Assembly (NCBI RefSeq): GCF_058153355.1
Contig: NZ_CM177019.1
Direction: 5' to 3' (one strand)
Length of the DNA: 64,000 bases
Numbering within the stretch: position 1 is the first letter of the stretch; each line of letters opens with the position of its first letter. Positions 25-29,608 of this stretch are shown piece after piece. A program made the translations under genes and the position numbers. The notes beneath the pieces are model-generated. The model ran no database searches. It saw only the letters and a list, made by a program, of their open reading frames with translations, and was not told the origin of the DNA.

Positions 25-56
25 TACAGATTCCTCACTTTATTCGGAAAATATGT

Positions 57-1919: not shown

Positions 1920-2567
1920 ATGGAACGAAATAAACTTGCTCGTCAGATTATTGACACTTGCCTGGAAATGACCCGCTTGGGACTGAACCAGGGGACAGCG
2001 GGTAACGTCAGTGTACGTTATCAGGATGGGATGCTGATTACGCCTACAGGTATTCCATATGAAAAACTGACGGAGTCGCATATTGTCTTTATTGATCGCA
2101 ACGGTAAACATGAGGAAGGAAAGCTCCCCTCAAGCGAATGGCGTTTCCATATGGCGGCCTATCAAAGCAGACCGGATGCCAACGCGGTTGTTCACAATCA
2201 TGCCGTTCATTGCACAGCAGTTTCTATTCTTAACCGACCAATCCCCGCTATTCACTACATGATTGCGGCGGCTGGCGGTAATTCTATTCCTTGCGCGCCT
2301 TATGCGACCTTTGGAACTCGGGAACTTTCTGAACATGTTGCGCTGGCTCTCAAAAACCGTAAGGCAACTTTGTTACAACATCATGGGCTTATCGCTTGTG
2401 AGGTGAATCTGGAGAAAGCGTTATGGCTGGCGCATGAGGTTGAAGTGCTGGCGCAGCTTTACCTGACGACCCTGGCGATTACGGACCCGGTGCCAGTGCT
2501 GAGCGATGAAGAGATTGCCGTAGTGCTGGAGAAATTCAAAACCTACGGGTTACGGATTGAAGAGTAA
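1920..2567 (+). CDS. fucA: L-fuculose-1-phosphate aldolase
   Basis: 215-aa ORF recognised as FucA (class II aldolase, HNHAVHCTA motif region). Confidence 0.95.
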   Translation: MERNKLARQIIDTCLEMTRLGLNQGTAGNVSVRYQDGMLITPTGIPYEKLTESHIVFIDRNGKHEEGKLPSSEWRFHMAAYQSRPDANAVVHNHAVHCTAVSILNRPIPAIHYMIAAAGGNSIPCAPYATFGTRELSEHVALALKNRKATLLQHHGLIACEVNLEKALWLAHEVEVLAQLYLTTLAITDPVPVLSDEEIAVVLEKFKTYGLRIEE

Positions 2568-2594
2568 TTTCGTAAAGCAAAAAGGAGCAGGATG

Positions 2595-3743: not shown

Positions 3744-3761
3744 ATGCGCTGATGTGATAAT

Positions 3762-3791
3762 GCCGGATACGACGTTTGCGGCGTATCCGGC
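3762..3791. terminator. REP-like hairpin between convergent fucO and xni
   Basis: 10-bp perfect inverted repeat GCCGGATACG / CGTATCCGGC with a 10-nt loop, resembling REP palindromes; sits between two convergent stop codons. Confidence 0.5.
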
Positions 3792-3797
3792 ACGCCG

Positions 3798-4664
<867 letters not shown>

Positions 4665-6032: not shown

Positions 6033-6089
6033 AGGAAATACATCGCGTTAAAACGGAGGAAGCGCCGCCCGAAAGCGGCGCGAAAGGAC

Positions 6090-7379
6090 TTAGCTGAACA
6101 GAGAGTAGAAGATTGCGGAGATTGCAATCAGACCCATCACGACAACGAATACGTTGCTGATGTGACCGCTGTACTTACGCATTGCCGGTACTTTCTGGAT
6201 TGCGTACATCGGCATCAGGAACAGGATCATCGCGATGATTGGGCCGCCCAGGGTTTCAATCATACCCAGGATGCTCGGGTTCAGGGTGGCAACAATCCAG
6301 GTCGTTACCAGCATGAACAGCGCAGTGATACGGTTCAGCTTGTTGATTTCGATAGACTTACCTTTACCACGCAGAGATTTAATCACCATACCGTTGAAGC
6401 CTTCACGTGCACCCAGGTAGTGGCCGAGGAAGGATTTGGTGATAGCGATAATCGCGATAATCGGAGCCATCCACGCGATGATCGGCGCGTTAAAGTGGTT
6501 AGCCAGGTAAGACAGAATAGAGATGTTCTGCTCTTTAGCCGCAGCCAGGTCTGCCGGAGTCAGGCTCAGTACGCAGCTGAAGACGAAGAACATTACGGTC
6601 AGCACCATCATGATGTGTGCGAATGCCAGGATCTTCGAGCATTTCTGTTCTGCCATATCGCCGTACTCTTCACGCTTCGCAACGGCGAAAGAAGAGATGA
6701 TCGGAGAGTGGTTGAACGAGAACACCATGACCGGAATCGCCAGCCACAGGGTCATCCACAGACCGTTGCCGGTTGCCGATGCAGTGTCCAGAGACAGCGT
6801 TTCCAGTGCTGCGCCGTTCCACTGAGGGATCAGGTACAGAGCCAGCAGCATCAGTACACCAACAAACGGGAATACCAGAATACTCATCGCCTTCACGATC
6901 ATCTGCTCACCGAAGCGAACAATGGTCATCATACCCACAATCAGGATCAGAGACAGAATCGCACGCGGCGGCGGCGTCATACCCAGCTGGTGAGACATGA
7001 AGCTTTCAACCGTGTTGGTGATTGCCACACTGTAAACCAGCAGGATCGGGTAGATAGCAAAGAAGTAGAGCAGGGTAATCAGTTTACCTGCACCAATACC
7101 AAAGTGTTCTTCTACAACCTCGGTGATGTCTTCGCCTGGGTTTTTACCAGACAGTACGAAGCGAGTCAGGCCGCGGTGAGCAAAAAACGTCATCGGGAAC
7201 GCAAGGATAGCCATGATGATCAGCGGGATCATACCGCCAACACCGGCGTTGATTGGCAGGAACAGCACGCCCGCGCCGATTGCCGTGCCGTAAAGGCCCA
7301 GCATCCACATGGTGTCTGTCTTGCGCCATGCACTACGTGAGTCTTTCGACACAATCGTGCTGGTTTGAGTCGTTTCCAT
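6090..7379 (-). CDS. sdaC: serine:H+ symporter
   Basis: ORF 6090-7382 (MMETTQT...); 429-aa polytopic transporter recognised as SdaC, upstream of sdaB on the same strand. Confidence 0.93.
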
Positions 7380-7935
7380 CAATTTCTCCTGGAGGAATGC
7401 AAATAATTCAGCTTTTAGCCAGTTCAGCCCGGGAAGGTGCCTGACCGTAAAAATGAAATCTGTCTATCGGCGATGGCTTAATCATTTTCCGCCGTAATAA
7501 TTTGAGGGCGGAAAGATACACACAAGTTATGTATCTATCAGTGATCTTGATCTCAAATACAATAATCTACTTGGAAGATAGATAATCTCAACGCTTTACT
7601 CTGTAAATCAAAAGTAAAAGAGAATTTAAGGGCAATATTTGCCCATTAAACGACATCTGACCTCTTCCGGGGCGCGCAATATATGTAGGTTGAGCTGAAA
7701 AAATCAATACTTTTAGTGAATAATGTGGATAATTTATTTTTCATAGCGATAAAATGTGGTTTGTGAAAACAGGGAAACGTTTGCGTTGCAATATAAATTG
7801 TATGACATATTAACTGTGATGATATTTATCGCGTGAGGATGGTAAGAAACATTTATATAACAAATGAAATGAATTGATGAGTAAGTAACCAAAAACGAGA
7901 AAACCCGGCAACAAACGTCACCGGGGAAGGGGAGA

Positions 7936-9300
7936 TTACGTGCAGATTTCGTAGCAAGGGATGTAGGCTGAGCCTGGCAACTTCATACGATGCTGGGCAA
8001 CAAAACCCTGTAGCAGGTCGTCCATACGACGCATAATCTCTTTATCGCCGTTGATTTTGTAAGGACCAAACTCTTCAATGGCGCGAATACCGACTTCTTT
8101 TACGTTACCCGCCACAATACCGGAGAACGCACGACGCAGATCAGCGGCCAAAACTTCTACTGGCTGATCCGGATACAGTTTCAGATTAGCCATGTTCTCG
8201 TGAGACGGCTCAAACGGCATTTGCAGATCGGGCGCAATGCGCATTGACCAGTTAAAGCTGTAGGCATCGCCCGTATCGCGACGGTTTTCTTTCACCAGCG
8301 GCATCGATTTTTTCATCTGACGAGCGACTTCAGCGGCGTCATCAATGATGATGCGATAATGGCGTCGCGCGTTTTCTCCCAGCGTATGCACGACAAACTC
8401 GTCCAGTACGCGGAAGTAGTCTGCGCTCTCTTTCGGGCCGGTGAGGATCAATGGTAAAACCTGATCTTTGTTGGCCGGGTTCATTAAAATTCCCAGCAAA
8501 TACAGCAACTCTTCTGCCGTACCCACACCGCCAGGGAAGATAATGATACCGTGAGCGATACGGACAAACGCTTCCAGACGTTTTTCGATATCTGGCATGA
8601 TGATCAATTCGTTGACCAGCGGGTTAGGCGGTTCAGCGGCGATAATCGACGGCTCTGTCATACCAATAAAACGACTGTCTTTGTAACGCTGCTGTGCGTG
8701 TCCGACCGCAGCACCTTTCATCGGCGCTTCCATCGCTCCCGGACCACAGCCGGTGCAGATATTCAGCTCACGCAGGCCCAGCTGATTCCCGACGCGACGG
8801 GCATACAAATACTCGTTTTCGTTAATTGAGTGCCCGCCCCAGCAGACCACCATATTTGGCGCTTCACCGACATGCAGTGCGCGAGCGTTACGCAAGATGG
8901 AAAAGACCAGGTTAGTGATGTGGACGGAGTTGTCGAGATTCAGGTTGGGAAAACGAACGGTGTTATGGATTTGCCCGTAAACGAAGAGAATGTCACGCAG
9001 AACCGCGAACAAGTTGGCCTGCAAAGCGCGGATAATACGCCCATCGACAAAAGCTTCTTCCGGGGGATTAATCAGTTCCAGCTTTACGCCGCGTTCACGG
9101 CGCAGGACGTTAATATCGAAATTTTCAAAACGAGACAGCAATTCTTTGCTGTTATCGGTCAAACTACCGGAGTTCAGTACGGCAAGTGAACAGTTGCGAA
9201 ACAGTTGATAGAGGTCGCTGCTGGCGGTGCGTTTAAGCATATCCACTTCCAGCTGCGACAACATATCCATGGAGCCAAGCGGGCTAATATGTGTAATCAA
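7936..9300 (-). CDS. ppnN: nucleotide 5'-monophosphate nucleosidase (LOG family)
   Basis: 454-aa ORF recognised as YgdH/PpnN; PGGxGTxxE LOG-family motif present ([10 protein letters not shown]). Confidence 0.9.
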
Positions 9301-9411
9301 GAAAAACTCCTTATGGGACGAATATCGTCATTCCCTTTGATTACAATAGCCCTGCCTGATGACCTTTCACAACCTTCTGCGTGAATCCAGCACGCAAAAT
9401 TGAGAAAAAAT

Positions 9412-10260
9412 TTATTGCCGAACCAGTCTTGTGGTCGATGGGACAAAATCGCTATTACTGCGCCACGGGTTAATGTCCAGACCGCCACGACGGGTATAAC
9501 GTGCGTAAACGCTCAATTTCTCTGGCTGGCAGAAGCGTAACAGGTCATTAAAGATGCGTTCCACGCACTGTTCATGGAACTCGTTGTGATGACGGAAAGA
9601 GACCAGGTAACGCAGCAGTTTTTCCCTGTCAATTTGGCGTCCGCGATACTGAATTTGGATCGAACCCCAATCTGGTTGATGGGTGATCAGGCAATTTGAT
9701 TTCAGCAGGTGGCTGACAAGCGTCTCTTCTACTACTTTTTCGCCACTGGTGGCATTCTCCAGATAGTCAGTAGTGAATTCATAGTTATCGATAGTGATAT
9801 CCTGGTTATCAATGCAAGTGCCATTGAAATGACCTATCGGTTGGCCTTCCAGTTCATCAAGGCGATATAACGCCACGCTAACATTACCCTGGGCGCAAGT
9901 GCTTAAGTCGCGCTCCAGCGTCTGGCGCACCTCATCCCAGTTATTAAAACGCGTCTGGTTAAAACTGTTGAGATAGAGCTTAAAACTCTTCGACTCAATC
10001 AGATTTGCGCTGGTGTAATCAAGTTCAACATGACCGACGGCGACCTGCGGCAAACCTTTCGCATTCAGCCAGGAAAGTTCATATAGCGTCCAGATATCCG
10101 TACCATGAAATGGCAGGTTATCCGCTTTCAGACCCAGCGGATCGCGATTCAGACTACGCGGAACGCCTTGTAGCAGGCTGGCGTCATAGGTATCCCGGTA
10201 ATCGGTTGATTTTCCAAGAGTCAGGCCCGCAAGTGCCTGATGGTTTGCATAAGAAGACAT
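9412..10260 (-). CDS. queF: NADPH-dependent 7-cyano-7-deazaguanine reductase
   Basis: 282-aa ORF recognised as two-domain QueF (YqcD). Confidence 0.92.
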
Positions 10261-10327
10261 GTTTCACCGTCATAAACCAGATAAACTAAACGACAAGTGT
10301 ATCTGGTTTAAGTGAAGAGAGAAATTA

Positions 10328-10873
10328 GTGGACGATTTGACCGCACAAGCCTTGAAAGATTTTACTGCACGCTACTGCGATGCGTGGCATGAAGAGCATA
10401 AAAGCTGGCCGTTAAGTGAGGAACTGTACGGCGTTCCTTCACCGTGCATTATTTCAACTACTGAAGATGCCGTATACTGGCAACCCCAGCCGTTTACCGG
10501 GGAACAAAATGTAAACGCGGTTGAACGCGCTTTTGATATTGTGATACAACCCACAATTCATACCTTTTATACGACTCAGTTTGCCGGGGATATGCACGCG
10601 CAGTTTGGCGATATCAAACTGACATTGCTGCAAACCTGGAGTGAAGACGACTTCCGTCGGGTGCAGGAAAATCTGATTGGTCATCTGGTGACTCAGAAAA
10701 GGCTAAAACTGCCGCCCACGCTATTTATCGCGACGCTGGAAGAAGAGTTAGAGGTCATCTCGGTGTGTAATCTCTCCGGTGAAGTGTGCAAAGAGACGCT
10801 GGGAACACGCAAACGGACGCATTTAGCCTCAAATCTTGCGGAATTCCTTAATCAACTTAAGCCTCTTCTGTAA
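10328..10873 (+). CDS. syd: SecY-interacting protein Syd
   Basis: 181-aa ORF recognised as Syd; conserved neighbour of csrB. Confidence 0.9.
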
Positions 10874-10892
10874 TCCAAATACCCCATCTTGT

Positions 10893-10910
10893 TGTGAGAG
10901 ATCTCTTACA
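10893..10910. promoter_or_regulatory. 18-bp near-palindrome TGTGAGAGATCTCTTACA, candidate UvrY (BarA/UvrY) box upstream of csrB
   Basis: Near-perfect inverted repeat about 175 bp upstream of the csrB 5' end; matches my recollection of the UvrY-binding site at csrB. Confidence 0.5.
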
Positions 10911-11083
10911 GACTCTGTAGGAGATCGCCAGGAAATAAGCGAATACTTAAAAAGATAAGAATCGTTATTTTCATTTAAAATCAATATATTGCTTGTTAAT
11001 TCTTAACTTTCATATGAAATTTTCCTTAAGGCATTGTCTGTAAGCGCCTTGTAAGACTTCGCGAAAAAGACGATTCTATCTTC

Positions 11084-11449
11084 GTCGACAGGGAGTCAGA
11101 CAACGAAGTGAACATCAGGATGATGACACTTCTGAAGGACACACCAGGAGGGTGTTTCAGGGAAAGGCTTCTGGATGAAGCGAAGAGGATGACGCAGGAC
11201 GCGTTAAAGGACACCTCCAGGATGGAGAATGAGAACCGGTCAGGATGATTCGGTGGGTCAGGAAGGCCAGGGACACTTCAGGATGAAGTATCACATCGGG
11301 GTGGTGTGAGCAGGAAGCAATAGTTCAGGATGAACTATTGGCCGCAAGGCCAGAGGAAAAGTTGTTAAGGATGAGCAGGGAGCAACAAAAGTAGCTGGAA
11401 TGCTGCGAAACGAACCGGGAGCACTGTGAATACAGTGCTCCCTTTTTTT
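11084..11449 (+). ncRNA. csrB: CsrB small RNA (CsrA-sequestering)
   Basis: Begins GTCGACAGGGAGTCAGACAACG; about 18-20 repeated CAGGA(U)G/AGGA motifs at roughly 15-25 nt intervals; ends in a GC hairpin GGGAGCACTGTGAATACAGTGCTCCC followed by T7 (11418-11449). Confidence 0.92.
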
Positions 11450-11494
11450 ATTCCTGCTATCCTTCGCGGCAGTTTTTCTTATTGAGGTTGCTTT

Positions 11495-11824
11495 ATGACC
11501 ACTCATGACCGCGTTCGTCTCCAGTTGCAGGCGCTTGAAGCGTTACTACGTGAACATCAGCACTGGCGAAACGATGAACCCCAGCCGCATCAATTTAACA
11601 GTACCCAACCGTTCTTTATGGACACCATGGAACCACTGGAGTGGTTGCAGTGGGTGCTGATCCCGCGAATGCACGATTTGTTAGATAACAACCAGCCGTT
11701 ACCGGGCGCTTTTGCCGTTGCACCCTATTATGAAATGGCGCTGGCGACGGACCACCCGCAACGCGCGCTTATTCTGGCTGAGCTGGAAAAACTGGATGCT
11801 CTTTTTGCGGATGATGCGAGCTAA
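11495..11824 (+). CDS. yqcC: DUF446-family protein YqcC
   Basis: 109-aa ORF, conserved position upstream of truC with overlapping stop/start. Confidence 0.85.
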   Translation: MTTHDRVRLQLQALEALLREHQHWRNDEPQPHQFNSTQPFFMDTMEPLEWLQWVLIPRMHDLLDNNQPLPGAFAVAPYYEMALATDHPQRALILAELEKLDALFADDAS

Positions 11825-12606
11825 TGCTGGAAATACTCTATCAGGATGAATGGCTGGTTGCGGTAAATAAACCCTCCGGCTGGCTGGTTCACCGCAGCTG
11901 GCTGGATCGCGACGAGAAAGTAGTGGTCATGCAAACCGTGCGTGACCAGATAGGCCAGCATGTTTTTACTGCTCATCGTCTGGACCGACCAACTTCTGGT
12001 GTGTTGTTGATGGGATTATCCGGCGAGGCCGGACGGCTGCTGGCACAACAGTTTGAACAGCACCAAATCCAGAAACGTTACCATGCGATTGTGCGCGGCT
12101 GGTTGATGGAAGAAGCAGTTCTGGATTATCCACTGGTGGAAGAACTGGACAAAATCGCTGATAAATTCGCCCGCGAAGATAAAGGTCCACAGCCAGCGGT
12201 GACACATTATCGCGGTCTGGCGACCGTAGAAATGCCTGTAGCGACCGGACGTTACCCGACTACGCGCTACGGTCTGGTGGAACTGGAGCCGAAAACAGGA
12301 CGCAAGCATCAGCTCCGTCGCCATCTTGCCCACTTGCGCCATCCGATTATTGGCGACAGCAAACATGGTGATTTACGTCAGAATCGTAGCGGTGTTGAAC
12401 ATTTTGGCCTTCAGCGGTTAATGCTGCATGCCAGTCAGTTGTCATTGACACATCCATTTACTGGCGAGCCGCTGACTATTCACGCGGGCCTGGACGACAC
12501 CTGGATGCAGGCGTTATCACAATTTGGCTGGCGTGGTCTGCTTCCTGAAAATGAAAGGGTTGAGTTCAGCGCGCCATCGGGTCAGGATGGAGAGATAAGT
12601 TCCTAA
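11824..12606 (+). CDS. truC: tRNA pseudouridine(65) synthase
   Basis: 260-aa ORF, RluA-family pseudouridine synthase motifs ([12 protein letters not shown]). Confidence 0.9.
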
Positions 12607-12623
12607 TCCAGGGAGAAAACGGT

Positions 12624-13073
12624 ATGGCGGAAATTGGTATTTTTGTGGGCACCATGTACGGAAATTCACTGTTAGTGGCGGAAGAAGCGGAAGCAATTCT
12701 GACCGCGCTGGGCCACAAAGTAACGGTATTTGAAGATCCTGAATTAAGTGACTGGCTGCCCTATCAGGATAAGTTCGTTCTGGTGGTTACGTCCACGACC
12801 GGGCAGGGCGACCTTCCTGATAGCATTGTGCCGCTCTTTCAGGGAATTAAAGATACCCTGGGCTTCCAGCCGAATCTGCGTTATGGCGTGATTGCGCTCG
12901 GCGACAGTAGTTATGTGAATTTCTGCAATGGCGGCAAACAGTTCGATGCCTTGTTGCAGGAACAGAGCGCTCAGCGAGTTGGCGAAATGCTGTTGATTGA
13001 CGCCAGTGATAACCCGGAACCGGAAACGGAATCAAATCCGTGGGTCGAACATTGGGGCACGCTGTTGTCCTGA
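12624..13073 (+). CDS. yqcA: flavodoxin-like protein
   Basis: 149-aa ORF, flavodoxin fold signature ([10 protein letters not shown]... [10 protein letters not shown]). Confidence 0.88.
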
Positions 13074-13492
13074 AAAATTGCCGTTTTAAGCAAACTGAAT
13101 CGAATCTTTTCAGGCAAATGCCAGTAAAAACTGCTTCATAGCGCGGATTTTTACTGGCGTTTGCCTGGAGTCAAGCGATCCATTTCATACTCTTCTTTAT
13201 TTCTTCGTTTTAATCCTTCCTTTCTTGTTCTTGTTTTCATTTCCGTGAAGTGGATTCCACCGTCCAGGGCTAATGCCAAAATCGGGCCTCATTGAACGCA
13301 TTAATGTTGTGTTGTTGCACGGTGAGCCGCTATGGCGCGCTTTTTATACTGTTATTGCCAGATATAAACACGCGCCGTATTCGGCGAACGACCTATAAAA
13401 ACGGCAAAAAATACCCTACGTCACCTCTGATTTCCTGGCGATGTCGCAGTCCAGAGTGAGCGTGGCTAACGCGAATTTTCAGGAGTGCAACA

Positions 13493-14845
13493 ATGAGTTC
13501 TTTAAGTCAGGCTGCGAGCAGTGTGGAAAAACGCACGAATGCTCGTTACTGGATAGTGGTGATGTTGTTTATCGTCACATCCTTCAACTACGGCGACCGC
13601 GCTACGCTCTCTATCGCCGGTTCGGAAATGGCCAAAGATATCGGCCTTGATCCTGTGGGAATGGGCTATGTGTTCTCTGCTTTCTCATGGGCTTATGTTA
13701 TCGGGCAGATCCCTGGTGGCTGGTTGCTGGACCGTTTTGGTTCAAAACGCGTCTACTTCTGGTCGATCTTTATCTGGTCGATGTTTACCTTGCTGCAAGG
13801 CTTCGTCGATATCTTTAGTGGATTCGGCATTATCGTTGCCCTGTTTACGCTGCGCTTCCTGGTCGGGCTTGCTGAAGCGCCATCTTTCCCCGGTAACAGT
13901 CGCATTGTAGCGGCCTGGTTTCCGGCGCAGGAAAGGGGAACTGCAGTGTCTATTTTTAACTCCGCCCAATACTTCGCAACAGTGATCTTCGCGCCGATTA
14001 TGGGCTGGCTGACTCATGAAGTGGGTTGGTCACATGTCTTCTTCTTCATGGGCGGTCTGGGCATTGTCATCAGCTTTATCTGGTTGAAAGTCATCCATGA
14101 GCCAAATCAACATCCGGGCGTAAATCAGAAAGAGCTGGAGTACATCGCCGCGGGTGGTGCGCTGATCAATATGGATCAGCAAAACACCAAAGTTAAAGTA
14201 CCGTTCAGCGTGAAGTGGGGGCAGATCAAACAGCTGCTCGGGTCACGGATGATGATCGGCGTTTATATCGGTCAGTACTGTATCAACGCCCTGACTTACT
14301 TCTTTATTACCTGGTTCCCGGTTTATCTGGTGCAGGCACGCGGGATGTCGATTCTGAAAGCGGGCTTTGTGGCTTCCGTTCCGGCGGTTTGCGGTTTTAT
14401 CGGCGGTGTGCTGGGTGGGATTATTTCCGACTGGCTGATGCGCCGCACGGGATCGCTGAACATTGCGCGTAAAACACCGATCGTAATGGGCATGTTGCTG
14501 TCGATGGTGATGGTGTTCTGCAACTACGTCAACGTTGAGTGGATGATCATCGGCTTTATGGCGCTGGCCTTCTTCGGTAAGGGCATCGGGGCGCTGGGTT
14601 GGGCAGTAATGGCAGATACCGCGCCAAAAGAGATCAGCGGTCTTTCCGGTGGCCTGTTCAATATGTTTGGTAACATTTCCGGTATCGTCACGCCAATCGC
14701 AATTGGTTATATCGTTGGCACGACTGGCTCCTTTAATGGGGCGCTGATTTATGTTGGTGTTCATGCCCTAATCGCGGTACTGAGCTACCTGGTGCTGGTG
14801 GGCGATATCAAGCGTATCGAGCTGAAACCTGTTGCGGGGCAATAA
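13493..14845 (+). CDS. gudP: glucarate/galactarate transporter (MFS)
   Basis: 450-aa MFS ORF; first gene of gudPXD. Confidence 0.92.
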
Positions 14846-14846
14846 G

Positions 14847-16187
14847 ATGGCGACACAATCCAGTCCTGTTATTACTGATATGAAAGTCATTCCGGTGGCC
14901 GGGCATGACAGCATGTTGCTTAATATTGGTGGGGCACATAACGCATATTTCACCCGCAATATTGTGGTACTCACCGATAACGCCGGGCATACCGGTATTG
15001 GTGAAGCGCCCGGCGGAGAGGTGATTTATCAGACACTGGTCGATGCTATTCCGATGGTGCTGGGCCAGGAGGTCGCACGCCTGAATAAAGTGGTTCAGCA
15101 GGTGCATAAAGGTAATCAGGCTGCCGATTTTGATACCTTCGGCAAAGGTGCCTGGACTTTTGAATTGCGCGTTAATGCCGTGGCGGCGCTGGAAGCCGCC
15201 TTGCTTGACCTGCTAGGTAAGGTGCTGAATGTTCCGGTCTGCGAACTGCTAGGGCCAGGCAAGCAACGTGACGCTATTACCGTCCTCGGTTATCTGTTTT
15301 ATATCGGTGATCGGACTAAAACCGATCTTCCTTATCTGGAAAATACGCCGGGCAACCATGAGTGGTATCAGTTGCGCCACCAAAAAGCGATGAACAGCGA
15401 AGCCGTTGTGCGTCTGGCGGAAGCCTCACAGGATCGCTATGGCTTTAAAGATTTCAAACTTAAGGGCGGCGTGTTACCTGGCGAGCAAGAAATCGACACT
15501 GTTCGTGCATTGAAGAAACGCTTCCCGGATGCGCGAATTACCGTTGATCCCAACGGTGCATGGCTGCTTGATGAAGCCATTTCTCTGTGCAAAGGGCTGA
15601 ATGATGTTCTCACCTATGCGGAAGACCCGTGCGGCGCTGAGCAGGGTTTCTCCGGACGTGAAGTGATGGCGGAGTTTCGACGGGCGACCGGATTGCCCGT
15701 CGCGACTAACATGATCGCCACCAACTGGCGCGAAATGGGCCATGCGGTGATGCTCAATGCGGTAGATATTCCACTTGCCGATCCGCATTTCTGGACGCTT
15801 TCCGGTGCAGTCCGCGTGGCGCAACTTTGCGACGACTGGGGGCTGACCTGGGGCTGCCATTCCAATAACCACTTTGATATCTCTCTGGCGATGTTTACCC
15901 ATGTGGGTGCGGCGGCACCGGGTAATCCTACCGCTATCGATACCCACTGGATTTGGCAGGAGGGAGATTGTCGCCTGACCAAAAATCCGCTGGAGATTAA
16001 AAACGGAAAAATTGCCGTTCCTGATGCGCCCGGTCTGGGCGTGGAACTGGACTGGGAGCAGGTACAAAAGGCGCATGAGGCCTATAAACGTCTGCCTGGC
16101 GGTGCGCGTAACGACGCGGGCCCGATGCAGTACCTGATCCCCGGCTGGACCTTTGACCGTAAACGTCCCGTTTTCGGCCGTCATTGA
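14847..16187 (+). CDS. gudX: glucarate dehydratase-related protein (enolase superfamily)
   Basis: ORF 14832-16187 trimmed to MATQSSPV...; paralogue of the following gudD (shared [20 protein letters not shown] blocks). Confidence 0.9.
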
Positions 16188-16207
16188 TTTTGAAAAAGGA
16201 CATAGAT

Positions 16208-17548
16208 ATGAGTTTTCAATTTACGACGCCTGTTGTTACTGAAATGCAGGTCATCCCGGTGGCGGGCCATGACAGTATGCTGATGAATCTGAGTGGTGCA
16301 CACGCACCGTTCTTCACGCGTAATATTGTGATTATCAAAGATAATTCTGGTCACACTGGCGTAGGGGAAATTCCCGGCGGCGAGAAAATCCGTAAAACGC
16401 TGGAAGATGCAATTCCGCTGGTGGTGGGTAAAACGCTGGGTGAATACAAAAACGTTCTGACGCTGGTGCGTAATACATTTGCCGATCGTGATGCCGGCGG
16501 GCGCGGTTTGCAGACATTTGATTTGCGGACCACTATTCATGTGGTTACTGGGATAGAAGCGGCAATGCTGGATCTGCTGGGGCAGCATCTGGGGGTTAAC
16601 GTGGCATCGCTGCTGGGCGATGGTCAACAGCGTAGCGAAGTCGAAATGCTCGGTTATCTGTTCTTCGTCGGTAATCGCAAAGCCACACCGCTGCCGTATC
16701 AAAGCCAGCCGGATGACTCATGCGACTGGTATCGCCTGCGTCACGAAGAAGCGATGACGTCGGATGCGGTGGTGCGCCTGGCGGAAGCGGCATATGAAAA
16801 ATATGGCTTCAACGATTTCAAACTGAAGGGCGGTGTACTGGCCGGAGAAGAAGAAGCCGAATCTATTGTGGCACTGGCGCAACGCTTCCCGCAGGCGCGT
16901 ATTACCCTCGATCCTAACGGTGCCTGGTCGCTGAACGAAGCGATTAAAATCGGTAAATACCTGAAAGGTTCGCTGGCTTATGCAGAAGATCCGTGTGGTG
17001 CGGAGCAAGGTTTCTCCGGGCGTGAAGTGATGGCAGAGTTCCGTCGCGCGACTGGCCTGCCGACCGCAACCAATATGATCGCCACCGACTGGCGGCAGAT
17101 GGGCCATACGCTCTCGTTACAATCCGTTGATATCCCGCTGGCGGATCCGCATTTCTGGACGATGCAAGGTTCGGTACGTGTGGCGCAAATGTGCCATGAA
17201 TTTGGCCTGACCTGGGGGTCACACTCTAACAACCACTTCGATATTTCCCTGGCGATGTTTACCCATGTAGCCGCTGCTGCACCGGGTAAAATTACTGCTA
17301 TTGATACGCACTGGATCTGGCAGGAAGGCAATCAGCGTCTGACCAAAGAACCGTTTGAGATCAAAGGCGGGCTGGTACAGGTGCCGCAAAAACCAGGATT
17401 GGGCGTAGAAATCGATATGGATCAGGTGATGAAAGCCCACGAGCTGTATCAGAAACACGGGCTTGGCGCGCGTGACGATGCAATGGGAATGCAGTATCTG
17501 ATTCCTGGCTGGACGTTCGATAACAAGCGTCCGTGCATGGTGCGTTAA
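16208..17548 (+). CDS. gudD: D-glucarate dehydratase
   Basis: ORF 16184-17548 trimmed to the Met at 16208 ([10 protein letters not shown]...); enolase-superfamily sequence. Confidence 0.92.
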
Positions 17549-17556
17549 GACAGAAA

Positions 17557-17590
17557 ACCAAAACCGGCTCTGTCAGGAGCCGGTTTTTAC
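17557..17590. terminator. bidirectional intrinsic terminator between gudD and barA
   Basis: AAAACCGGCTC-TGTCAG-GAGCCGGTTTTT hairpin flanked by A-run and T-run between convergent genes. Confidence 0.75.
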
Positions 17591-17605
17591 TGGATAACAT
17601 ATTTA

Positions 17606-20362
17606 TTACCCAAGAATTTTGCTGGCTTCGCGCGCTACATTATCCATCTCGTCCAACAGTTCCAGCAGCTCCGGCTCCAAATCTTCTTCTTTAGTACCGC
17701 TGCGTAGCTGTTGTTCGATCAGTTGGCAGAGATTCTTCATACGCGGCACACCGCTATAGCCGCAACTGCCATGCAGTTTATGAATCAAATCAACCAGGCC
17801 TTCCGGGTTTTCTCCAACCAGCTGTTCCTCAACTTTGTTGCGAACTTCAGGCAGGAAATCGAGTAACATTTGCAGCATATCGCGCGCTAAATCGGTTTTT
17901 CCTGCTGCCTGGCGTAGTGCCAGTTGCCAGTCGAGGGTCGCATTCGGGTTCACCACAATTTCATTGACTTCGGGGGTCACGACGCGAGAGGAAATACCGC
18001 TGCCAGGCTTGTAGCGCAACAGCAAATTATGCAATCGTTCTTCTTCAATCGGTTTCGCCAGATAATCGCTCATCCCTGCGCCAAGCAGCTTCTCTTTTTG
18101 CCCGGCCATTGCATGCGCCGTTACCGCGATAACCGGCGTTTGTTGCTGATGGGGGAGCTGGTGGATGAGTTCGCAGGCCCGAATACCGTCCATGTCCGGC
18201 ATTTGAATATCCATTAAGATCAAATCGAACGGCATCTGTTTCGCCCGTTCAACCGCCTGATGCCCGCTATCGCAAAGTTCCACATGTTGCACCATATCTT
18301 CCAGCAATGCGCCGATAAGTTTCAGGTTAGCGGGGTTGTCATCAATCGCCATGACTGTCATTGCCAGCTTACTTTCATCGGTTACAGGCAAAAGCGTGTT
18401 TTGTTTGTGATGACAAAATTCCGTCAGGGCAGGGAACAGGCGCGTAGGTGTTAATGGTTTCAGCAGACACGCGCCGATACCATCTTGCTTAAGTTTTTCA
18501 GCATTGACTTGTGCATGGCAAGGAAGTGCCAGCATCAGAAAATCGGTCATCGATACCGCTTTCGCTAATCGCTCATGTTGCATTGTTAGCGGCTCGCGGA
18601 AGGTCACCGCAATGCCTAATAACATCATGTCGTAATGCGCGGGAGGCAGCGCGGAGAACGTTGGGCTATAAACCACTTCCAGCGGCGTTTCACTTAAAAT
18701 ATCCAGCGTGCATTGCGCTGCTGCGGAGTTTGGTTCGACATAGGCCAGGCGCTTGCCGGCGAGGCACTGGGTGGATGGCCCTTCGATAATAATGTTCGGA
18801 TTCAGATCGAGATTAATGTGGAACCAGAAAGTTGAACCGCGATTCGGCTGGCTATGGAACGAAATATCGCCGCCCATTTCATTAACCAGTTTTTGTGTAA
18901 TCACCAGCCCCAGCCCGGTGCCACCATGACGGCGGGAAATACTGGCATCAGCCTGTCGGAAGGCCTGGAATAAGCGCGATTGATCGCGTTCAGGAATACC
19001 AATGCCGGTATCCCGAATCTGCACTTCAATCTGCACTTTGGTATTACTCAGCGCACGTTTTTCTACCAGAATATCAATGTTGCCATTCTCGGTGAATTTA
19101 ATTGCATTCCCTACCAGGTTAGTGATGATTTGCTGTAATCGCAGTGGGTCGCCAATTACGTTATCGGGCACGTCGCTCTTAATATTGAGCGTCAGTTCCA
19201 GCCCTTTATCGTGAGAAGAATGTGCCAGCAGGGTAACGACTTCATCCAGCGTGCTGCGTAGTGGGAATGGAATACTTTCCAGAATCAGCTTACCTGCTTC
19301 CAGTTTCGAGAAGTCGAGAACATCATTAATAATTGCCAGCAAATTATTTGCCGAACGTTCAATCGTATTCAGGTGGTCGCGCTGCGTTGGCGTTAATTCT
19401 GTTTTCAGCGTCAGGCGGGTAAAGCCAATAACGCCATTGAGCGGAGTTCGCAGCTCGTGGGACATATTTGCCAGAAACTCAGACTTAATCCGCGCCGCTT
19501 CCTGGGCACGTTTTTTCGCCAGATCCAACTCAACGTTCTGAATTTCCATCTGCTCCAGCGTTTCACGCAGATCGGACGTCGCCTGGTCGATATTGTGTTG
19601 CATCTCTTCGTGATAAGCAGCCAGCGACATTGCCATCGAGTTGATGCCATTTTTCAGCATATCCAGCTCGCCGAGCATAAATCCTTCCACTCGGCTGTCG
19701 AGTTGTCCGCGACGGATACGGTCGACGGTATTTACCATGTTGCGAATTGGACCGGTTACATCACGCATGAGTCGCCAGCCAAAAATAAGCGCAATACCGA
19801 TACAAAACAGCATCATCACGCTGGAAATAAAGATCTCTTTATATTGCTGCAAGCGAACCGATTTAAGATCCAGCTCAAGCGCAATATATCCCAACATATT
19901 TTGACTATTTTTGGCATCGCTACTGGGCGATTCGTCGGGGGAGTAACTCTCAGAAATAATCGGCGTGCGGAGGATCATAATATCGCCGTCACGAGTGACA
20001 GTGAGCTGGCGAGGAAACGGCACGTTGCTGCCGAGCTGCATTGATGAGGGATCAAGATGAAAATTGGAGGTGACAAAGAGTCGGTTATTTTCATCATAAA
20101 CCGAAATCGCGCGAACAATATCGGAATGGCGACGATGCAGCACGCTTATTAACTGACCGATAGATTCGCGATTTTGCAGGCTCATGCCATATTCAGTAGA
20201 AACTGCAAGCGGCTCAATAATGCTGGCTCCGGCATCTTCCAGTTGACGCTGCAAGTCGTTATAGCGATGCACAACGAAAAAGATACTCAGCAATAAACCA
20301 ATAAGGACGGTCGGTGCCAGGATCAGAATCATCATGCGTGCGCGCAGGCTGTAGTTGGTCAT
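17606..20362 (-). CDS. barA: hybrid sensor histidine kinase BarA
   Basis: 918-aa ORF with HAMP, HisKA ([11 protein letters not shown]), receiver and HPt regions. Confidence 0.95.
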
Positions 20363-20418
20363 GGAGTTCCGTTATGGGACAATTAAGGTCACACTGTTAA
20401 ATTGAGAAAGTCTCGCCA

Positions 20419-21720
20419 ATGGCGCAATTCTACTCTGCAAAACGACGCACGACGACGCGTCAGATCATAACTGTTTCAGTCAACGACCTCGACTCTTTTG
20501 GTCAGGGCGTGGCACGACATAACGGCAAAGCGTTATTTATTCCTGGATTATTGCCACAGGAAAACGCGGAAGTTACTGTTACTGAAGATAAAAAACAGTA
20601 CGCCCGCGCTAAAGTCGTGCGCCGGTTAAGCGATAGCCCGGAACGCGAAACGCCACGCTGCCCTCATTTTGGCGTATGCGGTGGCTGTCAGCAACAACAC
20701 GCCAGCGAGGATTTACAGCAGCGAAGCAAAAGTGCGGCACTCGCCCGATTAATGAAACACGAAGTCTCTGAAGTGATCGCCGATGTTCCCTGGGGCTATC
20801 GCCGTCGCGCGCGTTTAAGTTTGAACTACTTACCGAAAACACAGCAACTTCAGATGGGGTTTCGCAAAGCTGGCTCCAGTGACATTGTCGACGTTAAACA
20901 ATGCCCCATTTTAGTGCCCCAACTTGAAGCATTGCTGCCCAAAGTCAGGGCATGCCTGGGCAGCTTACAAGCTATGCGCCATCTTGGTCATGTTGAACTG
21001 GTACAAGCAACCAGCGGTACGCTGATGATTTTGCGCCATACCGCACCGCTAAGTTCGGCAGATCGCGAAAAACTGGAACGCTTTTCGCATTCTGAAGGCC
21101 TGGATCTGTATCTCGCCCCCGATAGTGAGATACTCGAAACCGTCTCTGGTGAGATGCCCTGGTATGACTCAAACGGGTTGCGCTTAACTTTTAGCCCGCG
21201 CGATTTTATTCAGGTCAATGCGGGTGTGAACCAAAAAATGGTAGCGCGTGCGTTGGAATGGCTGGATGTACAACCTGAAGATCGCGTACTGGATCTGTTC
21301 TGCGGTATGGGCAACTTTACACTGCCATTGGCGACACAAGCTGCCAGTGTGGTGGGTGTAGAAGGCGTTCCGGCGCTGGTTGAAAAAGGCCAGCAGAATG
21401 CGCGTCTTAATGGCTTACACAATGTGACGTTTTATCACGAAAATCTTGAAGAAGATGTCACAAAGCAGCCGTGGGCGAAAAACGGCTTCGATAAAGTGTT
21501 GCTGGACCCGGCGCGAGCAGGTGCCGCAGGTGTTATGCAGCAAATTATAAAACTGGAACCTATTCGTATAGTTTATGTATCCTGTAATCCTGCAACGCTG
21601 GCTCGGGATAGCGAAGCGTTATTAAAAGCAGGATATACCATTGCGCGACTGGCGATGCTGGATATGTTCCCACACACGGGACATCTGGAATCGATGGTAC
21701 TTTTCTCGCGCGTTAAATAG
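20419..21720 (+). CDS. rlmD: 23S rRNA (uracil1939-C5)-methyltransferase
   Basis: 433-aa ORF recognised as RlmD/RumA (TRAM domain, Fe-S Cys cluster, SAM-MTase). Confidence 0.92.
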
Positions 21721-21767
21721 TTACGATTTGCCGATTTCGGCAGGTCTGGTCCCTAAAGGAGAGGACG

Positions 21768-24002
21768 ATGGTTGCGGTAAGAAGTGCACATATCAATAAG
21801 GCTGGTGAATTTGATCCGGAAAAATGGATCGCAAGTCTGGGTATTACCAGCCAGAAGTCGTGTGAGTGCTTAGCCGAAACCTGGGCGTATTGTCTGCAAC
21901 AGACGCAGGGGCATCCGGATGCCAGTCTGTTATTGTGGCGTGGTGTTGAGATGGTGGAGATCCTCTCGACATTAAGTATGGACATTGACACGCTGCGGGC
22001 GGCGCTGCTGTTCCCTCTGGCGGATGCCAACGTAGTTAGCGAAGATGTGCTGCGTGAGAGCGTCGGTAAGTCGGTCGTTAACCTTATTCACGGCGTGCGT
22101 GATATGGCGGCGATCCGCCAGCTGAAAGCGACGCATACTGATTCTGTTTCCTCCGAACAGGTCGATAACGTTCGCCGGATGTTATTGGCGATGGTCGATG
22201 ATTTCCGCTGCGTGGTCATCAAACTGGCAGAGCGTATTGCTCATCTGCGCGAAGTAAAAGACGCGCCGGAAGATGAGCGCGTACTGGCGGCAAAAGAGTG
22301 CACCAATATCTACGCGCCGTTGGCGAACCGTCTTGGGATTGGGCAACTGAAATGGGAGCTGGAAGATTACTGCTTCCGTTATCTCCACCCGACCGAATAC
22401 AAACGCATCGCAAAACTGCTGCATGAACGCCGTCTCGATCGCGAACACTATATCGAAGAGTTTGTCGGCCATCTGCGCGCTGAGATGAAAGCTGAAGGCG
22501 TTAAAGCTGAAGTGTATGGCCGTCCGAAACACATCTACAGTATCTGGCGCAAAATGCAGAAAAAGAACCTCGCCTTCGATGAGCTGTTTGATGTGCGTGC
22601 GGTACGTATTGTCGCCGAGCGTTTACAGGATTGTTATGCCGCACTGGGGATAGTGCACACTCACTATCGCCACCTGCCGGATGAGTTCGATGATTACGTT
22701 GCGAACCCGAAACCGAACGGTTATCAGTCTATTCATACTGTGGTGCTGGGGCCGGGCGGTAAAACCGTTGAAATCCAAATCCGCACCAAACAGATGCATG
22801 AAGATGCAGAGTTAGGTGTTGCTGCGCACTGGAAATATAAAGAAGGCGCGGCAGCTGGCGGTGCACGTTCGGGACATGAAGACCGAATTGCCTGGCTGCG
22901 TAAACTGATTGCGTGGCAGGAAGAGATGGCTGATTCCGGCGAAATGCTCGACGAAGTACGCAGCCAGGTCTTTGACGACCGGGTGTATGTATTTACGCCG
23001 AAAGGTGATGTCGTTGATTTGCCTGCGGGATCAACGCCGCTGGACTTCGCTTACCACATCCACAGTGATGTCGGACACCGCTGCATCGGGGCAAAAATAG
23101 GCGGGCGCATTGTGCCGTTCACCTACCAGTTGCAGATGGGCGACCAGATTGAAATTATCACCCAGAAACAGCCGAACCCCAGCCGTGACTGGTTAAACCC
23201 AAACCTCGGTTACGTCACAACCAGCCGTGGGCGTTCGAAAATTCACGCCTGGTTCCGTAAACAGGACCGTGACAAAAACATTCTGGCAGGGCGGCAAATC
23301 CTTGACGACGAGCTGGAACATCTGGGGATCAGCCTGAAAGAAGCAGAAAAACATCTGCTGCCGCGTTACAACTTCAATGATGTCGACGAGTTGTTGGCAG
23401 CGATTGGTGGCGGGGATATCCGTCTCAATCAGATGGTGAACTTCCTGCAATCACAATTTAATAAACCGAGTGCCGAAGAGCAGGATGCCGCCGCGCTGAA
23501 GCAACTTCAGCAAAAAAGCTATACGCCACAAAACCGCAGTAAAGATAACGGTCGGGTGGTGGTTGAAGGTGTCGGCAACCTGATGCACCACATCGCGCGT
23601 TGCTGCCAGCCGATTCCTGGAGATGAGATTGTCGGCTTCATTACCCAGGGGCGCGGTATTTCAGTACACCGCGCCGATTGCGAACAATTGGCGGAACTGC
23701 GCTCCCATGCGCCAGAACGCATTGTTGACGCGGTATGGGGCGAGAGCTACTCCGCCGGATATTCGCTGGTGGTCCGCGTGGTGGCTAATGATCGTAGTGG
23801 GTTGTTACGTGATATCACGACCATTCTCGCCAACGAGAAAGTGAACGTGCTTGGCGTTGCCAGCCGTAGCGACACCAAACAGCAACTGGCGACCATCGAC
23901 ATGACCATTGAGATTTACAACCTGCAAGTGCTGGGCCGCGTGCTGGGTAAACTCAACCAGGTGCCGGATGTTATCGACGCGCGTCGGTTGCACGGGAGTT
24001 AG
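21768..24002 (+). CDS. relA: GTP pyrophosphokinase ((p)ppGpp synthetase I)
   Basis: 744-aa ORF recognised as RelA. Confidence 0.96.
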   Translation: MVAVRSAHINKAGEFDPEKWIASLGITSQKSCECLAETWAYCLQQTQGHPDASLLLWRGVEMVEILSTLSMDIDTLRAALLFPLADANVVSEDVLRESVGKSVVNLIHGVRDMAAIRQLKATHTDSVSSEQVDNVRRMLLAMVDDFRCVVIKLAERIAHLREVKDAPEDERVLAAKECTNIYAPLANRLGIGQLKWELEDYCFRYLHPTEYKRIAKLLHERRLDREHYIEEFVGHLRAEMKAEGVKAEVYGRPKHIYSIWRKMQKKNLAFDELFDVRAVRIVAERLQDCYAALGIVHTHYRHLPDEFDDYVANPKPNGYQSIHTVVLGPGGKTVEIQIRTKQMHEDAELGVAAHWKYKEGAAAGGARSGHEDRIAWLRKLIAWQEEMADSGEMLDEVRSQVFDDRVYVFTPKGDVVDLPAGSTPLDFAYHIHSDVGHRCIGAKIGGRIVPFTYQLQMGDQIEIITQKQPNPSRDWLNPNLGYVTTSRGRSKIHAWFRKQDRDKNILAGRQILDDELEHLGISLKEAEKHLLPRYNFNDVDELLAAIGGGDIRLNQMVNFLQSQFNKPSAEEQDAAALKQLQQKSYTPQNRSKDNGRVVVEGVGNLMHHIARCCQPIPGDEIVGFITQGRGISVHRADCEQLAELRSHAPERIVDAVWGESYSAGYSLVVRVVANDRSGLLRDITTILANEKVNVLGVASRSDTKQQLATIDMTIEIYNLQVLGRVLGKLNQVPDVIDARRLHGS

Positions 24003-24097
24003 TCTTACATAGCTGGATATGGCGTCAGCCGTATCCAGCGATATCTTTTACTCGAAGGTATTACACCTGACAGACCCGCAATTTTCAGGACATTCTA

Positions 24098-24889
24098 ATG
24101 AATCAAATCGACCGTTTGCTCACTATTATGCAGCGTCTTCGCGACCCGGAAAACGGCTGCCCGTGGGATAAAGAGCAGACATTTGCCACCATTGCACCTT
24201 ACACCCTTGAAGAAACCTACGAAGTGCTGGACGCCATCGCCCGTGAAGATTTTGACGATCTGCGCGGTGAGCTCGGCGATCTATTGTTTCAGGTGGTGTT
24301 TTACGCGCAAATGGCTCAGGAAGAAGGGCGCTTTGATTTTAATGATATCTGCGCCGCGATTAGCGATAAGCTAGAACGTCGCCATCCACATGTTTTTGCA
24401 GGCAGTTCTGCCGAAAACAGTAATGAAGTGCTTGCCCGTTGGGAGCAAATCAAAACCGAAGAGCGCGCGCAGAAAGCGCAGCATTCGGCGCTGGACGATA
24501 TTCCTCGTAGTTTACCGGCTTTAATGCGTGCGCAAAAAATCCAGAAACGTTGCGCCAACGTTGGCTTCGATTGGACGACGCTTGGTCCGGTAGTCGATAA
24601 AGTCTACGAAGAGATCGACGAGGTGATGTACGAGGCGCGGCAGGCTGTTGTCGACCAGGCTAAACTGGAGGAGGAAATGGGTGACCTGCTGTTTGCCACG
24701 GTCAACATGGCCCGCCATTTAGGGACAAAAGCAGAGATTGCACTACAAAAAGCCAATGAAAAATTCGAGCGCCGTTTTCGCGAAGTGGAGCGTATTGTTG
24801 CCGCGCGTGGACTGGAAATGACAGGTGTTGACCTCGAAACAATGGAAGAAGTCTGGCAACAGGTAAAACGGCAGGAAATTGATCTCTAA
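24098..24889 (+). CDS. mazG: nucleoside triphosphate pyrophosphohydrolase
   Basis: 263-aa ORF recognised as MazG; starts only 95 bp after the relA stop. Confidence 0.93.
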   Translation: MNQIDRLLTIMQRLRDPENGCPWDKEQTFATIAPYTLEETYEVLDAIAREDFDDLRGELGDLLFQVVFYAQMAQEEGRFDFNDICAAISDKLERRHPHVFAGSSAENSNEVLARWEQIKTEERAQKAQHSALDDIPRSLPALMRAQKIQKRCANVGFDWTTLGPVVDKVYEEIDEVMYEARQAVVDQAKLEEEMGDLLFATVNMARHLGTKAEIALQKANEKFERRFREVERIVAARGLEMTGVDLETMEEVWQQVKRQEIDL

Positions 24890-25101
24890 GGGAATTACGT
24901 GGTCAAGCGCGATTTGTGTCATTTTTTAAATGACAAGCGCTTGATTTGCGTCAAAAACATTTACCCCAAAGGGGCTATTTTCTCACTCCTGATTTCAATA
25001 GTGCGCTGGCGAAGAGGAGGGATAATGAAAGTTTGTGGCACAGGTCATGTTCGGGTATACTGCTTTCCCGTCCTGGTTATTCCATCGTCTTTTCAACCTA
25101 A

Positions 25102-26754
<1,653 letters not shown>

Positions 26755-26826
26755 GTAAAAAAGTTAGAACGGCAACGCGTACCCAGGGTACGCGTTGTTT
26801 GTCTGGAGTTTCAGTTTAACTAGTGA

Positions 26827-28140
<1,314 letters not shown>

Positions 28141-28167
28141 GTCTGACTTTATCTGATTTAAAAATGC

Positions 28168-28181
28168 CAGCCTTCGGGCTG
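28168..28181. repeat. IS4 target-site duplication, left copy
   Basis: CAGCCTTCGGGCTG immediately left of the IS4 left IR; identical copy at 29609-29622. Exact TSD length (12-14 bp) is ambiguous because the target is itself palindromic. Confidence 0.8.
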
Positions 28182-29608
28182 TAATGCCGATCAGTTAAGG
28201 ATCAGTTGACCGATCCAGTGGCTGTGTAAGAATCCGGAAACGCTCACTTGTTTCCGGATTTTTTTATGCACATTGGACAGGCTCTTGATCTGGTATCCCG
28301 TTACGATTCTCTGCGTAACCCACTGACTTCTCTGGGGGATTACCTCGACCCCGAACTCATCTCTCGTTGCCTTGCCGAATCAGGTACTGTAACGCTACGC
28401 AAGCGCCGTCTTCCCCTCGAAATGATGGTCTGGTGTATTGTTGGCATGGCGCTTGAGCGTAAAGAACCTCTTCACCAGATTGTGAATCGCCTGGACATCA
28501 TGCTGCCGGGCAATCGCCCCTTCGTTGCCCCCAGTGCCGTTATTCAGGCCCGCCAGCGCCTGGGAAGTGAGGCTGTCCGCCGCGTGTTCACGAAAACAGC
28601 GCAGCTCTGGCATAACGCCACGCCGCATCCGCACTGGTGCGGCCTGACCCTGCTGGCCATCGATGGTGTGTTCTGGCGCACACCGGATACACCAGAGAAC
28701 GATGCAGCCTTCCCCCGCCAGACACATGCCGGGAACCCGGCGCTCTACCCGCAGGTCAAAATGGTCTGCCAGATGGAACTGACCAGCCATCTGCTGACGG
28801 CTGCAGCCTTCGGCACGATGAAGAACAGCGAAAATGAGCTTGCTGAGCAACTTATAGAACAAACCGGCGATAACACTCTGACGTTAATGGATAAAGGTTA
28901 TTACTCACTGGGACTGTTAAATGCCTGGAGCCTGGCGGGAGAACACCGCCACTGGATGATACCTCTCAGAAAGGGAGCGCAATATGAAGAGATCAGAAAA
29001 CTGGGTAAAGGCGATCATCTGGTGAAGCTGAAAACCAGCCCGCAGGCACGAAAAAAGTGGCCGGGACTGGGAAATGAAGTGACAGCCCGCCTGCTGACCG
29101 TGACGCGCAAAGGAAAAGTCTGCCATCTGCTGACGTCGATGACGGACGCCATGCGCTTCCCCGGAGGAGAAATGGCGGATCTGTACAGTCATCGCTGGGA
29201 AATCGAACTGGGATACAGGGAGATAAAACAGACGATGCAACTGAGCAGGCTGACGCTGAGAAGTAAAAAGCCGGAGCTTGTGGAGCAAGAGCTGTGGGGT
29301 GTCTTACTGGCTTATAATCTGGTGAGATATCAGATGATTAAAATGGCGGAACATCTGAAAGGTTACTGGCCGAATCAACTGAGTTTCTCAGAATCATGCG
29401 GAATGGTGATGAGAATGCTGATGACATTGCAGGGCGCTTCACCGGGACGTATACCGGAGCTGATGCGCGATCTTGCAAGTATGGGACAACTTGTGAAATT
29501 ACCGACAAGAAGGGAAAGGGCCTTCCCGAGAGTGGTAAAGGAGAGGCCCTGGAAATACCCCACAGCCCCGAAAAAGAGCCAGTCAGTTGCTTAACTGACT
29601 GGCATTAC
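28182..29608 (+). mobile_element. IS4 insertion sequence, complete
   Basis: About 1427 bp, bounded by imperfect 18-bp terminal inverted repeats (TAATGCCGATCAGTTAAG at left; reverse complement of the right end is TAATGCCAGTCAGTTAAG) and carrying a single transposase ORF. Confidence 0.9.
28266..29594 (+). CDS. insG: IS4 transposase
   Basis: ORF 28248-29594 trimmed to [16 protein letters not shown]...; 442-aa DDE transposase recognised as IS4 InsG. Confidence 0.9.

Follow-up and report, generated by a model that had tools for sequence, protein, structure and literature searches.

The relA–mazG interval of the window (the whole stretch of 64,000 nucleotides analysed here) lacks the mazEF toxin–antitoxin pair that K-12 carries in this position. 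We put the probability at about 85% that this 95-bp interval is an ancestral-type region, which was never entered by the cassette, was most likely inherited vertically, and is made up of a REP-type palindrome and the leader of mazG. The arrangement of K-12 would then be the derived one, and putative functions are assigned below to the hairpin and to a relA–mazG operon.

The relA–mazG Interval and Its K-12 Counterpart

The gene upstream of the interval is relA (21768–24002, plus strand), encoding a GTP diphosphokinase of 744 amino acids, which matches the NCBIfam equivalog NF008124 end to end with 1678 bits. It is followed by mazG (24098–24889, plus strand), which encodes a nucleoside triphosphate pyrophosphohydrolase of 263 amino acids (TIGR00444, 416 bits; NF007113, 368 bits). 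The spacer between these co-oriented genes occupies 24003–24097, and both gene boundaries and the length of 95 bp given in the initial annotation were borne out by the NCBIfam matches and the coordinates. Further out, rlmD lies upstream of relA, while pyrG and an enolase-sized ORF in the eno position lie downstream of mazG. The RelA protein is identical over 744 of 744 residues to that of locus L003 (WP_000226815.1), and the same accession is found in E. coli DH1.

DH1, a K-12 strain, was employed for the comparison with the K-12 allele. Its annotation gives the order relA, mazE, mazF, mazG with a relA–mazG interval of 731 bp, in agreement with the K-12 gene order given in the initial annotation. 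BLAST and MAFFT alignments revealed that homology to the K-12 allele ends at the relA stop codon and restarts at 24056 (AGGTATTACACCTGACAG...), 42 nt upstream of the mazG ATG. Between these breakpoints, the window has an allele-specific segment of 53 bp (24003–24055, plus strand), essentially a hairpin with a few flanking bases, against 690 bp in K-12 (L001, 2004–2693). This means that the two alleles differ by replacement and not by a simple indel. The remainder of the spacer is the mazG leader AGGTATTACACCTGACAGACCCGCAATTTTCAGGACATTCTA (24056–24097, plus strand), common to both alleles. A Shine–Dalgarno-like AGGA can be read directly from the sequence at 24087–24090, 7 nt upstream of the mazG ATG, so that the spacer does contain the ribosome-binding region of mazG that had been placed there.

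The window thus shares with the K-12 operon a RelA protein that is 100% identical (with 3.8% difference in DNA), a MazG identical at 260 of 263 residues and the same 42-nt leader, and differs from it in having the 53-bp REP-like segment in place of a mazEF cassette of 690 bp that has a promoter of its own. The mazE promoter region with its palindrome (...TCGTATCTACAATGTAGATTGATATATACTGTATCTACATATGATAGC) is absent from the spacer in the alignment with DH1, and no remnants of that palindrome or of the mazF 3′ end were seen in it. Searches by tblastn with K-12 MazE (E ≤ 1e-3) and K-12 MazF found no match within the 64-kb window. Taken together, the alignment and the searches confirm that mazEF is missing from its canonical site in this strain. 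Two further possibilities were considered for the K-12 allele and discarded. A transposition signature was sought around the cassette, and no direct or inverted repeats bracket it. A possible remnant of a REP head (TAGGCCGAAAT) over the relA stop codon in K-12 is too short to be distinguished from chance and is missing in E. albertii.

Distribution of the mazEF-Less Allele

The mazEF-less arrangement is ordinary and already known. A 56-bp allele-specific query matched 1,000 of 5,426 complete RefSeq E. coli genomes, always on the chromosome, with 985 of the matches at ≥99% identity. Matches at 100% include CFT073, Nissle 1917 and JJ1886 (ST131), and an ST69 strain was also matched. The K-12 mazEF segment matches 4,419 complete genomes, and the two counts sum to 5,419 of the 5,426. 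Over all 95 bp, the spacer of the window is the same as in WP8-S18-ESBL-07, the ST69 strain and CH4796. CFT073 is identical to the window over the first 63 bp and has five differences over the 95 bp, while strain 042, whose adjacent relA and mazG have no annotated feature between them, has four.

The absence of mazEF was documented by Fraikin et al. 2020 (PMC7167474), who describe an "undisturbed bicistronic operon" of relA and mazG where the pair is absent, for example in UTI89, citing Fiedoruk et al. 2015 and Pandey & Gerdes 2005. The window resembles this UTI89/CFT073-type allele in that relA and mazG are adjacent, co-oriented and ~95 bp apart, and in the identity of its spacer with those of known mazEF-less strains. 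It differs in that the flanking genes of those strains are 2–3% diverged from it and its own nearest relative in the flanks carries mazEF. No statement on mazEF in CFT073 was found in Norton & Mulvey 2012.

The site is also known to accept other cargo. Loci of toxin–antitoxin insertion are plastic, and a parDE system occupies the relA–mazG region in Salmonella (PMC7167474); in Salmonella Newport, either the ste fimbrial operon or a RelE/ParE-type pair is located between relA and mazG (PMC3569456). The single intergenic site that takes such varied cargo in Salmonella is the same one that is without cargo in the window.

The REP-Like Palindrome

A hairpin had been noted in the spacer, and its arms, CTGGATATGGC and GCCGTATCCAG, are present. 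The terminator-like site, the predicted fold and the alignment with outgroup REPs all point to an imperfect palindrome on the plus strand, whose full stem spans 24012–24039 and has 12 pairs, including one G–U, closed by a GTCA loop and followed by GATATCTTTT. Its start lies 9 nt beyond the relA stop codon. The RNA fold of the spacer has an energy of −33.2 kcal/mol, compared with −16.3 ± 2.8 for shuffled sequences (z = −6.0).

REP elements of Enterobacteriaceae have several roles, which include stabilization of mRNA 3′ ends and attenuation of transcription, and the GTAG at their head is the tetranucleotide recognised by the REP-associated transposase. The palindrome of the window is like them in being an imperfect palindrome of ~35 bp that is able to form a stem-loop (12-bp stem, 4-nt loop), is extragenic and lies right 3′ of a gene. 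It is unlike them in its ATAG head and in its copy number at the level of BLAST: the 28-nt hairpin occurs once in the 64-kb window, and the 56-bp query covering the hairpin segment finds one copy per genome in 1,000 E. coli. It is also degenerate in comparison with the canonical REPs located elsewhere in the window, to which it aligns at only 24–26 of 35 positions with gaps.

The palindrome was also compared with the REPs found at the orthologous position in other genera. Canonical REPs (GTAGGCCGGATAAGGCG...CATCCGGC) follow the relA stop codon by a few bases, in the same orientation, in four Citrobacter loci and in Klebsiella pneumoniae, and three of them are then followed by (G/A)AT(A/T)TC, like the palindrome of the window. 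An alignment of the palindrome with these REPs runs column for column and has a mean column identity of 73%. The head tetranucleotide is ATAG in the window and in L005, and GTAG in L004 and in the Citrobacter and Klebsiella orthologues; L004 and L005 are genomes labelled E. coli that GTDB assigns to other Escherichia species. The stem of L004 differs from that of the window by four substitutions, all of which keep the pairing, and one is a double change from T–A to C–G. Since REPs are repeated elements, likeness of the core alone does not prove orthology to the outgroup REPs, and the argument was built on position, orientation and the few flanking bases. From these features, the hairpin is read as a REP remnant that is degenerate and fixed, and on this evidence the palindrome would have been in position since before the divergence of Escherichia and Citrobacter.

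Two other features of the spacer concern expression. The consensus scan found no sigma-70-like promoter in 23600–24300, so an independent promoter of mazG in or near the spacer was not retained as a candidate. In the predicted fold, a third helix is formed by pairing of CCUGA (24066–24070) with UCAGG (24085–24089), overlapping the Shine–Dalgarno-like AGGA of mazG. As this segment is common to the alleles with and without mazEF, the helix (24066–24089) may serve to control the translation of mazG.

Outgroups and Polarity

The state of the site outside E. coli was obtained by searching a single genome for each GTDB species with the MazG of the window; this search returned 80 loci. Both relA and mazG could be placed in 79 of them, and 60 have spacers of 34–143 bp. 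No homolog of MazE or MazF was found between relA and mazG in any of these 79 species representatives of Enterobacterales. In L004 and L005, the flanks are 94–95% identical to those of the window, and the spacer has the same length of 95 bp and a nearly identical sequence.

A different picture was obtained for E. albertii NBRC 107761, which has a spacer of 261 bp (L006, 3240–3500). Here ~38 bp of the K-12 mazE promoter region come right after the relA stop codon and ~30 bp of the sequence downstream of mazF are also kept, with REPs between them. Judged by these junctions, the spacer of E. albertii is a decayed mazEF allele. Because a mazEF scar is thus carried by E. albertii, a basal Escherichia, the insertion would be old or would have moved between Escherichia species, and the two alleles may have existed side by side for long. 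The outgroups without mazEF, the REPs in orthologous position and the lack of decay scars in the window argue that the empty site is the ancestral-type allele and that the arrangement of K-12 is derived.

The scan also revealed other inserts at this site. In Superficieibacter (L019, 2674–3286), a ParD antitoxin (TIGR02606, 8.9e-25) is accompanied by a ParE-like ORF without a match in NCBIfam. Buttiauxella agrestis (L043, 1841–3428) has an Hcp/TssD protein (TIGR03344, 3e-56) with an ORF of 261 amino acids and a hydrophobic ORF of 109 amino acids, and a second Superficieibacter (L017, 3066–3404) has a hydrophobic ORF of 112 amino acids that is similar in size and position to that of Buttiauxella. 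Six loci from Pectobacterium, Brenneria and Samsonia have relA–mazG spacers of 336–418 bp. Several spurious ORF translations of these spacers contain peptide strings that recur across the genera, for example ...RRARHGASNRRRPVTPVF..., which suggests that a conserved repeat or RNA element is present.

Flanking Genes and Recombination

Neighbour-joining trees of 17 sequences were constructed from the final 2,000 nt of relA and from 1,900 nt starting at mazG. On both flanks, the nearest relative of the window is Z0117EC0005, which carries mazEF and is diverged by 1.25% on the left and 0.21% on the right; the next branches on both trees are N96 and 042, both with the empty site. In the right-flank tree, CFT073 (empty) is sister to E2348/69 (mazEF present), and the ST69 strain with WP8 (empty) is sister to MRSN346595 (mazEF present). 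Since sister pairs differ in their mazEF state, presence or absence of the pair is a recombining polymorphism, and by these trees recombination brings in or removes the cassette inside phylogroups, B2 being an example. It had been proposed in the initial annotation that the missing mazEF sets this strain in a lineage distinct from K-12. Distinctness is supported by the 3–4% divergence of the flanking genes from K-12; the absence of mazEF itself does not serve as a lineage marker, as the closest relative has the pair and opposite-state sister pairs occur.

The flanks of the site are mosaic. The differences between the window and Z0117EC0005 cluster near the indel, at 23600–23906 on the left and at 24136 and 24139 on the right, with only two more in the next ~1,860 bp. 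At 24136 and 24139, the window has T and T, which are private among the 13 E. coli of the panel and common to L005 and E. albertii; L004 shares only the T at 24136. Z0117EC0005 has the C and G common in E. coli, adjoining its mazEF. This suggests that Z0117EC0005 would be a recombinant that gained mazEF, the window having kept the empty site. The SNP patterns of the panel near the junction are mixed, and no donor is named for the difference between the two. Within relA, a separate stretch of 160 bp (22703–22862) has nine window-private substitutions, five of which match L005. They are synonymous, as RelA is 100% identical to that of K-12, and the stretch resembles a short tract that was imported or is ancient.

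The opposite direction of change was also considered, namely that an ancestor carrying mazEF lost the cassette by homologous recombination with a mazEF-less donor, so that the window has the same allele through secondary loss. The mazEF-positive nearest relative on both flanks, the clustering of differences around the indel and the other opposite-state sister pairs, which show that swaps occur, would all fit with such an allelic replacement. Nevertheless, all five mazEF-less E. coli of the panel have C and G at 24136 and 24139. A typical mazEF-less E. coli donor is unlikely, because the T and T of the window are private among the panel E. coli and common to other Escherichia species. In addition, a gain in the group of Z0117EC0005 is more parsimonious, as N96 and 042 are empty on both trees. 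We therefore consider secondary loss by replacement unlikely, and the never-inserted reading is preferred for the window.

Deletion and Concealed Genes as Improbable Alternatives

A clean deletion of mazEF in situ from a K-12-like allele of this lineage is far less probable. Loss of the mazEF coding region does occur: E. albertii NBRC 107761 retains just the cassette junctions, and in one E. coli genome, SW07163, the match to the cassette is limited to its mazF part. The spacer of the window has neither of the junctions seen in E. albertii, which argues against an origin by deletion. Its 53 bp are missing from the K-12 allele and it contains no K-12-specific junction sequence; 1,000 genomes of E. 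coli and two further Escherichia species have the same spacer; and a REP-like palindrome aligning with the outgroup REPs cannot arise through a deletion. An ancestral state or a clean deletion had been left as alternatives for the site at first annotation. The outgroup scan (mazEF in 0 of 79) and the alignment of the REPs favour the former, and the 53 bp without a K-12 counterpart speak against the latter.

The contents of the spacer were also searched for genes. Only two ORFs of ≥20 amino acids touch it, of 34 and 50 amino acids. The 34-codon ORF lies over the 3′ end of relA in another frame, and the 50-codon ORF (24019–24171) starts with an ATG within the hairpin stem and then runs out of frame into mazG. 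The ORF scan found no suitable ORF in the spacer for a MazE of ~82 amino acids (an AbrB/SpoVT-type antitoxin), and tblastn found no match in the 64-kb window for the MazF/PemK endoribonuclease of ~111 amino acids. The ORF scan, the NCBIfam search with the 50-residue ORF and tblastn thus rule out a hidden toxin–antitoxin pair or small gene in the spacer, and the earlier judgement that a mazEF-like pair could not be concealed in 95 bp holds. That an unrecognised mini-toxin or sRNA in the spacer functionally replaces mazEF is scarcely credible: the strong structure of the spacer and the ATG inside the hairpin might be taken to point that way, but the ORF continues into mazG in another frame and has no match in NCBIfam, its start codon is buried in the stem, Rfam gave no family match in 23400–24700 (E ≤ 1), and the structure is accounted for by the REP-type palindrome.

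Haplotype and Wider Window

Among the 5,426 complete E. coli genomes, the best match to the window is 98.6% over 1–20000 and 98.3% over 39001–64000, and none reaches ≥99% in these parts or over 21768–24889. Only five contigs on record encode exactly this BarA protein, while the exact MazG and RlmD proteins are widespread. One of the five, which comes from an independent assembly (SRR28786219), is 99.98% identical to the window over 9606–28207 (18.6 kb); its relA–mazG site is likewise empty, and its end lies immediately before the IS4 element. The Clermont markers arpA, chuA, yjaA and TspE4.C2 are located beyond the limits of the window. By these comparisons, the haplotype is considered real and rare, and to represent a fairly deep lineage of E. 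coli (sensu lato).

The IS4-family transposase (NF033592, 304 bits) is encoded at 28248–29594 (plus strand), just downstream of eno. The element is present at the same position in some E. coli, e.g., CH4796, and is not found in Z0117EC0005.

Missing cas genes had been listed together with the missing mazEF when the window was first described. Two adjacent ORFs, at 51260–52936 (plus strand) and 53084–54121 (minus strand), match the N-terminal part of Cas3 (~residues 6–351 and 366–523 of 878), with iap directly after them. No cascade or cas1/cas2-sized ORFs occur between these ORFs and iap, and Tandem Repeats Finder detected no CRISPR array in 50000–54500. The description therefore amounts to a cas3 remnant in two ORFs, and a clean absence of the cas genes is contradicted.

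Proposed Function and Allele Exchange

The palindrome is probably a hairpin of the relA 3′ end or a leaky terminator. As the 3′ end of the relA message, it would protect the transcript against 3′–5′ exonucleases. The terminator scan scored the hairpin as terminator-like, with 7 G–C pairs and the tail GAUAUCUUUU; it was the 1 site found, compared with 0.8 expected by chance, so that the call does not rise above the background of the region. Because the stem is strong but only four consecutive U follow it, the hairpin would be at most a leaky terminator, which may attenuate read-through. It is proposed that mazG is expressed mainly by read-through from the relA promoters, relA and mazG forming a two-gene operon. 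This bicistronic model agrees with the published description of relA–mazG in mazEF-less strains (PMC7167474).

For the origin of the K-12 arrangement, it is proposed that the 690-bp mazE–mazF cassette, bringing its own promoter, replaced the 53-bp segment that contains the REP. Both alleles would then segregate in E. coli and be exchanged between lineages via homologous recombination in the conserved flanks.

A parallel is found in ccdO157 at folA–apaH, for which a toxin–antitoxin cassette or REP sequences in one intergenic slot were reported (Mine et al. 2009, as cited in PMC7167474). The relA–mazG site is similar in that a small toxin–antitoxin cassette and a REP-type sequence alternate at one intercistronic site, and different in the locus and in the toxin–antitoxin family. 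In the literature searched, no description of such an alternation was found for relA–mazG, and no statement was found on the REP nature of its empty site. The only mildly new point of this study is the identification of a REP remnant as the segment that mazEF replaced.

A broader and rather doubtful extension of this parallel is that the REP after the relA stop codon is a conserved 'landing pad', which has been repeatedly replaced by small conflict modules, with the alleles being shuffled afterwards by recombination in the flanks. The replacing modules would be mazEF in E. coli, parDE in Salmonella and Superficieibacter, and an Hcp–effector–immunity cassette in Buttiauxella. If it were true, closely related strains would differ in mazEF and possibly also in the processing of the relA 3′ end and in the expression of mazG.

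Implications

The strain belongs to the ~18% of complete E. coli genomes that have no chromosomal mazEF at the canonical site. The mazEF pair has been reported to give modest protection against RNA phages (PMC12151602). A MazF-dependent phenotype at this locus, such as this protection or RNA cleavage induced by stress, is not to be assumed for the strain. The analysis gives a polarity in which the empty site would be ancestral and the K-12 allele would have arisen by insertion. The polymorphism is also unfit as a phylogroup marker. The recognition of a REP remnant as the replaced segment would be a small addition to the picture of toxin–antitoxin cassettes and REPs alternating at intercistronic sites.
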